Positions 5,136-6,196 of a DNA stretch of 64,000 nucleotides are shown piece by piece; position 1 is the stretch's first letter; every line of letters begins with the position of its first letter. This DNA is from Patescibacteria group bacterium. Lineage in GTDB: Bacteria > Patescibacteriota > Patescibacteriia > Patescibacteriales > UBA12465. The notes beneath the pieces were generated by a model. The model saw only the letters and a program-made list of their open reading frames with translations, was not told the DNA's origin and searched no databases. Both the position numbers and the translations under genes were made by a program. The stretch lies in assembly GCA_041651095.1 (NCBI GenBank), contig JBAZJV010000001.1, forward strand, positions 19,835 to 83,834. Reading direction: 5' to 3'.

Positions 5136-5819
5136 TTATTTTAATTTTTCCTTCAAGCCGTCGATCCAGCCTATCAGACGGAAAAAATGGTTAACATCAT
5201 TTACTCTTAAATGGATCGTTCCATATTGTAGATTTTTATTTCGTTTTTGTAAACTAGACCGACTAATGGCTGAGCAGGTACGCATAAAATTACCTTTTGG
5301 CACCCCAGTCAGTCTATGCCAAAAATTTATTGATTTGTTAGCATCTTTCAGATTATGGATCATTAGTTGAATTTTTATTTGGTCTTTTTTTAGGTTTAAA
5401 AATTTAGTAAAAAATTTAACCATCAATTTAACCATATCCGGATCAGAATTAGCGAAGTCTAAACTCTTCCATTTACTGTTGGAAGCCCCTCTTTTGTATC
5501 CTTCAGCCCAATAGAGTGATGTGCCGGCCAAAAATAGTGGGTCTGACAGCATTTTTCTAGACTCATACTTGGCTGATTTGCGCATGTTATTATGTCTTTC
5601 AGAAGCAATGATGGTTTGATTTTTATTCCTGGCTATTAAGCTGGCTATAGCCAAAGAATTAGTCCGCGCCTGTATTTTACGGCGAGCTTTATTGGAGATA
5701 ACAAGATCTTTTAGCCAAACGCTCAAAGTGCTTTTAGGTATTTTAAGGGCTAGGCTGATTTGGCTGTAAGACTGTCCGGATTTTCTTAATTTAATAGCTA
5801 AGTCCCTATCGTTTCGCAT
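5136..5819 (-). CDS. HTH + LAGLIDADG-like putative free-standing homing endonuclease (AT-rich insert)
   Basis: 227 aa. The N-terminus is a resolvase-type HTH (SGQSYSQISLALKIPKSTLSVWLK). A single LAGLIDADG-like motif (PLFLAGTSLYWAEGYK) is followed by SLDFANSDPDMVKLMVKFF. The ORF is visibly AT-richer than its neighbours and is wedged between tRNA-Phe and tRNA-Pro. Confidence 0.45.
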   Translation of the reverse strand: MRNDRDLAIKLRKSGQSYSQISLALKIPKSTLSVWLKDLVISNKARRKIQARTNSLAIASLIARNKNQTIIASERHNNMRKSAKYESRKMLSDPLFLAGTSLYWAEGYKRGASNSKWKSLDFANSDPDMVKLMVKFFTKFLNLKKDQIKIQLMIHNLKDANKSINFWHRLTGVPKGNFMRTCSAISRSSLQKRNKNLQYGTIHLRVNDVNHFFRLIGWIDGLKEKLK

Positions 5820-5823
5820 AATA

Positions 5824-5870
5824 TAAAATTGAACCCACGGTAACAGTATTATACCATGGGTTCAATTTTA
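5824..5870 (-). terminator. Long hairpin between tRNA-Phe and the HEG-like ORF (terminator or insert boundary)
   Basis: TAAAATTGAACCCAcGG / CCaTGGGTTCAATTTTA: a 17-bp stem with one mismatch and a 13-nt loop, with A/T runs on both sides. Confidence 0.45.
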
Positions 5871-5879
5871 TATCTATTT

Positions 5880-6196
5880 TGGTGCCCCGGGTCAGAATCG
5901 AACTGACGACACAAGGATTTTCCTTGATGGTTGCTTAGGTTTTCCTAAGGATTGGACTATCTCATCTCCGCTTAAGATATAAGTACGGAGTCGGGCGCTC
6001 ACGGCGGGATTATTGTTGGGCTCACCCGCTAGTCTCTACACCTTCCTTAATCTTAATACCCGATTAAGGCTTGGCTCGGGATTACCATATTTATTGCTAA
6101 ACTTAGGTTTCCCCGAATTCACCCGATTTTCATCCCCATGTTACCATAGGGCGGACCGAAAATCAGTCCTTTGCTCTACCACTGAGCTACCGAGGC
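5880..6196 (-). tRNA. tRNA-Phe (anticodon GAA) interrupted by a group I intron; exons 6196-6165 and 5922-5880, CCA encoded
   Basis: The joined exons read GCCTCGG TA GCTC AGTGGTA GAGC A AAGGA CTGAAAA TCCTT GTGTC GTCAG TTCGATT CTGAC CCGGGGC A CCA. This is 75 nt and close to E. coli tRNA-Phe as I recall it. Confidence 0.85.
5923..6164 (-). ncRNA. Group I intron (IC3-like, Azoarcus / cyanobacterial tRNA-intron type), 242 nt, no internal ORF
   Basis: Core blocks are GGGGAAACCTAAG, TATGGTAATCCCGAGCCAAGCC, GGAAGGTGTAGAGACTAGCGGG and GATAGTCCAAT. P1 forms between exon GGACU and intron GGUCC with a U.G pair at the splice site. The intron ends in G before G34. Confidence 0.85.

Follow-up and report, generated by a model that had tools for sequence, protein, structure and literature searches.

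The window analysed here is a stretch of 64,000 nucleotides (nt) from a Patescibacteria group bacterium (assembly GCA_041651095.1, contig JBAZJV010000001.1, positions 19,835 to 83,834), and the element in question is a gene for phenylalanine transfer RNA (tRNA), tRNA-Phe(GAA), that is split by a group I intron. The gene lies on the minus strand, as do all of the features described below, and it stands in an array in the order tRNA-Ile(GAU), tRNA-Met(CAU), tRNA-Phe. Its 5' exon (6165..6196; 32 nt, GCCTCGGTAGCTCAGTGGTAGAGCAAAGGACT) covers tRNA positions 1-33, with position 17 absent, and ends in the splice-site U33. The intron (5923..6164) is 242 nt long, matches the Rfam family RF00028 and is assigned below to an IA-like class, the “Phe.2Ug” type. 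The 3' exon (5880..5922; 43 nt, GAAAATCCTTGTGTCGTCAGTTCGATTCTGACCCGGGGCACCA) runs from G34 to A73 and the encoded CCA at 5882..5880. When the segments 6196-6165 and 5922-5880 were spliced in silico, the resultant 75-mer was drawn by ARAGORN as the cloverleaf of a canonical tRNA-Phe(GAA), having an acceptor stem of 7 base pairs (bp) with one U.G pair, A73 and the CCA end; read from the DNA, the joined-exon junction is GGACU followed by GAAAAUCC. The first exon is near-identical across 10 orthologues.

Two features of the mature tRNA vary among relatives. The 3' CCA that the window gene encodes (5880-5882) is replaced by CAA or CAG after the discriminator in the seven orthologues checked. In addition, at least 13 of 106 relatives (e.g. 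loci L017, L040, L046, L050 and L056) have the T-loop UCCGAUU, with C at tRNA position 55, where U is near-universal; the window T-loop is the normal UUCGAUU (5894-5900).

In its default mode ARAGORN misses the tRNA-Phe gene and reports only tRNA-Pro, tRNA-Met, tRNA-Ile and tRNA-Ala in the 64-kb window. In intron mode it returns tRNA-Phe at c[5880,6196] (gaa) i(34,242), and intron-aware ARAGORN applied to the whole window found no further split tRNA; by ARAGORN and Rfam together, the split gene is the sole tRNA-Phe in the window. Independently of the tRNA exons, the Rfam model Intron_gpI (RF00028) matches 5933..6173 over its full length (positions 1-253 of 253) with 82.2 bits and E=2.3e-19, where the curated gathering score is 50 bits. 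This match is far beyond chance, and the observation of the intron is real.

The exact splice junctions are slightly obscured by a G that is duplicated at both of them (GGACU/G at the first and CAAG/GAAAA at the second, the stroke marking the junction), and for this reason ARAGORN shifts the start of the intron by one base, to after G34. The mature tRNA is identical with either placement. Group I introns follow rules in which a U at position -1 forms a U.G pair and P10 starts at the 3' exon. The 33/34 placement is favoured because U33.G8 then ends P1, the intron ends in G and P10 starts at G34.

Relatives of the intron were collected with two patterns. The first, AGACTAGNNNGTGAGCCYAACAATAATC, spans P7 and the following hairpin loop and occurs once in the window. 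The species-representative genomes that contain it number 49, and almost all are metagenome-assembled genomes (MAGs) of Patescibacteria. Nine of the 49 loci have a split tRNA-Phe(GAA) according to intron-aware ARAGORN (L005, L012, L017, L022, L032, L034, L038, L040 and L046, the last being the complete Falkowbacteria chromosome CP066698.1), and in six of the nine the split tRNA-Phe stands in a tRNA-Ile(GAU)-tRNA-Met(CAU)-tRNA-Phe array as it does in the window. The other 40 matches are, with one exception, introns at position 35/36 of tRNA-Asn(GUU) (about 39 of the 49); some of these were called Thr(UGU) by ARAGORN, a mis-call of split tRNA-Asn that has been described by Nakagawa et al. (PMC13011429). 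A few carriers bear the labels of other phyla: split tRNA-Phe genes occur in MAGs labelled Gammaproteobacteria (L017, L038) and Omnitrophota (L032), and the tRNA-Asn type in one labelled Limnocylindrales (L049). These Patescibacteria-type split tRNAs probably reflect mis-binned contigs rather than cross-phylum occurrence.

The second, independent pattern consisted only of exon 1 and the first 8 nt of the intron and was applied to metagenomes. It gave at least 119 stretches, among them at least 113 complete split tRNA-Phe genes, 97 of which are distinct, with introns of 202-451 nt. Neither P7 nor the 3' strand of P3 is part of this pattern, and both motifs are present in 113/113 of the metagenomic copies listed. 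Among the loci listed, the best match to the window has about 85-91% identity over the tRNA array only, the flanks being at most 81% identical. The relatives by which the organism is placed are MAGs that bear the labels Patescibacteria, Falkowbacteria and Uhrbacteria. No open reading frame (ORF) for a homing endonuclease was found in the window intron or in the longest relatives inspected (up to 451 nt); the extra length of the long relatives lies in peripheral helices. In the longest of all, the 451-nt intron of L052 (Ga0066637_10007489), two hairpins separate P7 from the 3' strand of P3, and there are large extensions of P2, P5 and P8, again with no endonuclease-sized ORF.

An alignment, A1, of 11 sequences was made from the window, the nine genome loci and the published Doudnabacteria gene, with an explicit structure comprising the tRNA acceptor, D and T arms, P1, P10, P2-P5, P5a, P6, P6a, P7, the hairpin that follows P7, P8 and P9. 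In this alignment 97.0% of cells form standard pairs, compared to 30-51% after a displacement of the 3' partners by 1-3 columns, and 40 pairs are changed on both sides, a number that was reached in none of 500 shuffles. It is clear that every variable helix is backed by covariation in A1. RNAalifold, which cannot represent pseudoknots, independently recovered P1, P2, P3, P4, P5, P5a, P6a, the post-P7 hairpin, P8, P9 and the tRNA arms.

P1 (6153..6169) is formed between the exon sequence GGACU (6169..6165) and intron nt 8-12, GGUCC (6157..6153), and has the U33.G8 wobble at the 5' splice site. This U.G is found in 11/11 sequences of A1 and in 97/97 distinct metagenomic sequences. Two P1 pairs covary in A1, with compensatory changes of C32-G to U-A and of A31-U to G-C; among the 97 metagenomic sequences the C32-G9 pair becomes U-A in six. 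On the other side of the splice site, the intron part of P10 (6158..6164) is formed by intron nt 1-7, GAUUUUC, which pair with G34-C40, GAAAAUC (5922..5916), giving 7 contiguous bp that directly abut P1 in the window. P10 is paired in 96% of A1 cells and has one compensatory pair. Furthermore, intron nt 2 tracks tRNA position 39 (as A-U, G-U or G-C) in 96 of the 97 metagenomic sequences, and where G-C replaces A-U at tRNA 31:39, intron nt 10 in P1 goes from U to C, while in 5 of the 6 cases intron nt 2 in P10 also goes from A to G. Therefore changes in either strand of the anticodon stem are matched in the guide sequence.

The remaining helices are those of a group I core, with P7 crossing P3 as a pseudoknot, and P3, P4, P5, P6a, P8 and P9 are supported by covariation. 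The P2 hairpin (6134..6151; CCCUAUG/CAUGGGG) covaries at 7/7 pairs and is closed by a GUAA tetraloop; its loop, L2, is of the GNRA type in 105 of 106 relatives. The 5' strand of P3 (6120..6126, UCGGGUG) pairs with the 3' strand at 5991..5997 (CGCCCGA), is 100% paired with two compensatory pairs, and is placed alike by the Rfam alignment, RNAalifold and the covariation in A1. P4, P5 and P5a occupy 6076..6116, with P4 as UCGGGG/UCCCGA and P5a, which has a GCAA tetraloop, covarying at 4/5 pairs; Rfam and RNAalifold agree on this region. In the P6 and P6a hairpin (6040..6075), 7/7 pairs of P6a covary. The P8 hairpin (5966..5990; CUCCG..CUUA/UAAG..CGGAG) covaries at 6/9 pairs and is found by both the Rfam alignment and RNAalifold, and the P9 hairpin (5934..5949; CUUAGG/CCUAAG, loop AAAA), which RNAalifold also draws, covaries at 3/6. 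The guanosine-binding helix P7 is formed by G(A)GACUA (6030..6036) and UAGUCC (5954..5959); its 5' strand is invariant in 11/11 sequences of A1, and the motifs GAGACTA and ATAGTCC occur in 113/113 of the metagenomic copies listed. The intron ends in omega-G (5923), a G in 11/11 sequences of A1 and in 113/113 of the metagenomic copies listed, for which the search pattern left this base free. Across 106 distinct relatives, 133 columns show conservation of at least 95%, and the window copy deviates at none of these.

These results bear out part of an earlier reading of the locus that was made from the letters of the window and is called here the sequence-only reading. The strings and coordinates it quoted for the split gene are all present, with its four core motifs in the order given; the RF00028 search and intron-aware ARAGORN that it had proposed returned the group I intron at full length and the tRNA-Phe(GAA) split after U33, in the only tRNA-Phe gene visible in the window; and its P1 (GGACU/GGUCC with U33.G), P7 (GACUA/UAGUC), P9 and omega-G are as it described them. 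Its P8, GCGGG/CCCGC, has to be redrawn, since this stem is a P7.1-type hairpin and the real P8 is CUCCG...CGGAG.

The redrawn hairpin (6004..6029; 26 nt) comes after the 5' strand of P7 and before the 3' strand of P3, and Rfam places both the latter (GCGCCCGA) and the true P8 downstream of it. Its stem covaries at two pairs in A1, occurring as CGGG/CCCG, UAGG/CCUA, CAGG/CCUG and UGGG/CCCA. An extension of P7 at this place is a trait of subgroup IA, here present as a single covarying hairpin; P7.1/P7.2 helices at the same place have been used to assign introns to IA2 (PMC3428280). The 16-nt loop of the hairpin, UGAGCCCAACAAUAAU, is highly conserved, and it was therefore tested for pairing partners. 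Positions 177-179 of this loop share mutual information with the loop of P6a (L6a), and in the window C177-C179 (6020..6018) are complementary to G136-G138 of L6a (6061..6059). In an alignment-free count, complementarity of at least 3 nt between the two loops was found in 88 of 91 sequences, in the combinations GGG/CCC, AGG/CCU, GGCA/UGCC, GAGU/ACUC, GGUA/UACC, GGGU/ACCC, GAC/GUC and GAU/AUC. Of 22 minority variants 20 are compensated, whereas shuffled data gave 7.5 on average and 15 at most. The loop-loop pairing amounts to 3-4 bp that covary across relatives L005-L168. In IA introns the P11 pseudoknot anchors the P7 extension to the extended P6 stem (PMC12088405, citing Jaeger, Westhof & Michel 1991), and the pairing of L6a with the P7.1 loop, absent from the structure given in the sequence-only reading, is this known P11; the idea that it might be a new tertiary contact was rejected on the match to P11 as described in PMC12088405. 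With P1 to P10 and a P7.1-type hairpin forming P11 with L6a, the predicted architecture of the intron is IA-like.

Sequence, structure, covariation, homology and distribution together make it very probable that the tRNA-Phe gene is live and that the group I intron in it, of the IA-like Phe.2Ug type, is functional. Catalysis and splicing in vivo would then follow from established group I chemistry. The tRNA-Ile-Met-Phe array would be transcribed, and in the precursor G29-U33, the 5' half of the anticodon arm, would pair with intron nt 8-12 as P1, replacing the anticodon stem. A free guanosine held in P7 would attack after U33; omega-G would then displace this guanosine while intron nt 1-7 hold G34-C40 in P10. 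Attack by the 3'-OH of U33 would ligate the exons, and the freed anticodon arm could refold. Furthermore, there is no endonuclease ORF in the longest relatives inspected, the tRNA array is conserved and the guide co-evolves with the tRNA. This suggests that intron and array are passed on together by vertical inheritance, under selection for splicing, in a Patescibacteria lineage that is ABY1/Falkowbacteria-like.

Several observations weigh against this interpretation. Only 64 kb are covered, and there may be a second, uninterrupted tRNA-Phe gene elsewhere in the genome. P7 is invariant, so that covariation is uninformative for the very helix that binds guanosine. The L9 loop of the window (5940-5943) is AAAA, not GNRA; three other relatives are likewise, while most have GAAA and a few GUAA, and the AAAA loop could weaken a tertiary (tetraloop-receptor) contact. 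Finally, a single post-P7 hairpin is unlike the P7.1 and P7.2 pair of a textbook IA2 intron.

The L9 loop also has a bearing on whether the RNA acts alone. In vivo, many group I introns depend on proteins, and this could be a genuine group I intron that requires a host chaperone or tRNA-binding factor, a version that is compatible with the interpretation given above but is itself rather unlikely. The AAAA loop and the modest peripheral contacts, together with the general frequency of such help, would suit it; the GNRA-type L2, P11 and the long P10, however, are kept in the Phe.2Ug relatives and would stabilise a fold made of RNA only.

There is a slim chance that the intron is a long-domesticated element, rather than a parasite, whose guanosine-dependent splicing serves as a checkpoint tying the supply of tRNA-Phe to nucleotide status. 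This idea draws on the lack of an endonuclease, on a gene that is possibly the sole tRNA-Phe gene of the lineage (at least 100 distinct copies) and on a guide that co-evolves with both strands of the anticodon stem. A regulatory role of tRNA intron splicing has been raised in general terms by Nakagawa et al. 2026 (PMC13011429).

The sequence-only reading had called the intron IC3-type, as if a member of the class of the Azoarcus tRNA-Ile and cyanobacterial tRNA-Leu introns had spread to a new host tRNA and a new position. The likeness on which it relied is genuine at the level of sequence: the P4-P6/P7 core resembles those of the Anabaena and Azoarcus introns, the strings GGGGAAACCU, AAUCCCGAGCCAAGCC, GGAAGGUGUAGAGACUA and AUAGUCCAA from P4-P6 and P7 are very like those of IC3-labelled tRNA-Leu and tRNA-fMet introns, and IC3-labelled introns align at 71-79% over the shared core. 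The covarying hairpin between P7 and the 3' strand of P3 and its P11 with L6a are IA traits, however, and P3 (UCGGGUG/CGCCCGA) is common to IA-labelled tRNA-Asn introns but not to IC3 ones. Relatedness was also ranked in a panel of 16 sequences by global alignment, the subgroup labels being those in the supplements of Nakagawa et al. The measure is crude, yet it ranks consistently, with Mba55.Phe.2Ug first, followed by the Doudnabacteria Phe intron, the tRNA-Asn 35/36 intron of the splicing assays, the IA1/IA2-labelled members and lastly the IC3-labelled ones. The IA1/IA2-labelled members scored 45-64 and the IC3-labelled 24-36, all IA above all IC3. Nakagawa et al. 2026 (PMC13011429) also report that no tRNA intron of Patescibacteria is IC and that nearly all are IA. 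Membership of IC3 was rejected on the presence of the post-P7 hairpin and on the nearest labelled relatives being IA1/IA2 and not IC3, and a newly arrived IC3 intron is improbable.

Nor are the host and the site new, although the sequence-only reading took no group I intron to be known in tRNA-Phe or at 33/34. In its account of tRNA intron types, Williams 2020 (bioRxiv 10.1101/2020.01.27.920355) names four classical types, including the tRNA-fMet intron at 33/34 (fMet.2Ug), and extends them to 21; index 2 in this nomenclature denotes 33/34, which Nakagawa et al. 2026 (mSystems, PMC13011429) describe as a common insertion site. The Williams seed alignment gpI.sto already holds Mba55.Phe.2Ug, and Table 1 of Nakagawa 2026 (PMC13011429) has a tRNA-Phe(GAA) 33/34 intron from Doudnabacteria GCA_016699995.1, the sequence of which is in their Table S3; both are clear homologues of the window intron. 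An Elusimicrobiota tRNA-Phe intron, at 31/32, is labelled IA3 among the entries of the same work (PMC13011429). The window intron is in a tRNA-Phe(GAA) host at 33/34, has U at -1 and omega-G, and is homologous to the published members; it is another member of the catalogued Phe.2Ug type.

That the locus is merely a decayed intron in a dead tRNA gene, with tRNA-Phe supplied by an uninterrupted copy elsewhere, could be argued from the fraction of the genome that is visible and from the non-GNRA L9 loop, but is very improbable given that the copy has no deviation at the 133 near-invariant positions, that all of its helices are intact with compensatory changes over at least 100 lineages, that a guide co-evolving with the anticodon stem requires selection for splicing, that the exons form a perfect cloverleaf with encoded CCA, and that in the one complete genome with published tRNA counts, that of Doudnabacteria, a single tRNA-Phe gene, the split one, was returned by each of three tRNA finders (PMC13011429).

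Downstream of the split gene, between tRNA-Phe and tRNA-Pro, is an ORF of 227 amino acids (5136-5819). It has a weak, sub-threshold match to an N-terminal helix-turn-helix (Pfam HTH_SB, with 27.7 bits where the cut-off is 43). The DNA of this region is about 77-81% conserved in the metagenomic relatives L064, L099, L150 and L158, and it is therefore not a recent insertion; in L034, tRNA-Pro comes directly after tRNA-Phe. A perfect 17-bp inverted repeat, ATATAAAATTGAACCCA ... TGGGTTCAATTTTATAT, lies directly 3' of tRNA-Phe (5821-5873) and can be lengthened to about 20 bp. Within its loop is an extended -10-like sequence, TGGTATAAT, in a promoter-like site at 5876..5848, and similar hairpins stand 3' of tRNA-Phe in L046 and L057. 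The repeat may be a terminator of the tRNA array, a promoter of the downstream ORF, or both.

The type has already been published, as has its distribution at the level of the phylum, and current understanding is therefore unchanged by this further copy. Its proper record is as an element of subgroup IA and Phe.2Ug type, not as a new host or site of IC3. Default tRNA finders miss the split gene, so that a genome of this kind would wrongly seem to be without tRNA-Phe. Furthermore, so abundant a group (nine species-representative genomes and at least 113 metagenomic copies) is a convenient small model of IA architecture, its value lying in the three-way co-evolution of the guide with the anticodon stem and in a minimal P7.1/P11 module.

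Of the 16 panel sequences, Mba55.Phe.2Ug is the most similar. It shares with the window intron the host tRNA-Phe, the 33/34 position, U at -1 and omega-G, and it is 86% identical over 198 aligned nt, with the same P3 (CUGGGUG...AGCGCCCAG), the same P4/P6/P7 core and the same post-P7 hairpin, with the loop UGAG(U)CCCAACAAUAAU. It comes from another genome, and P2, P5, P8 and P9 differ in both sequence and length, the P9 of Mba55 being much shorter. The Doudnabacteria intron of GCA_016699995.1 has the same tRNA, position and P7.1 loop and is 79% identical over 203 nt, with P1 and P10 compensated for its differing anticodon stem; at 211 nt it is without the P9 hairpin, and it belongs to a different class of Patescibacteria. 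Compared with the Doudnabacteria gene, the window copy stands in the Ile-Met-Phe array and encodes CCA. The tRNA-Asn(GUU) 35/36 intron of GCA_016700035.1 is of the same lineage, with an identical P7.1 loop (GUGAGCCCAACAAUAAUC), both strands of P3 and J3/4, and 79% identity over 210 nt; its host tRNA is another and its position is 35/36 rather than 33/34, hence its internal guide sequence is different. Precise self-splicing in vitro has been reported for 35/36 introns by Nakagawa 2026 (PMC13011429), and the GCA_016700035.1 tRNA-Asn sequence is in their splicing-assay table.

At a greater distance, the IC3 introns of Anabaena/Nostoc tRNA-Leu(UAA) (34/35), cyanobacterial tRNA-fMet (33/34) and Azoarcus tRNA-Ile resemble the window intron in having an anticodon-loop site and a P1 drawn from the 5' half of the anticodon arm; like it they are small, have no ORF and possess a similar P4-P6/P7 core, and the tRNA-fMet intron shares its 33/34 site. 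Unlike it, they pass from P7 directly into the 3' strand of P3 and lack P11, and their P3 and 3' domain (P9/P9.0) differ. In IA introns with P11, such as that in the mitochondrial large subunit from Candida albicans (PMC12088405), the loop of the P7 extension pairs with the extended P6 stem-loop and staples two domains together, a feature shared with the window intron. These known IA introns are large, come from organelles or phage, and often carry P7.1 and P7.2, P9.1 and ORFs, whereas the window intron would be a minimal version, of 242 nt, in a bacterial tRNA gene.

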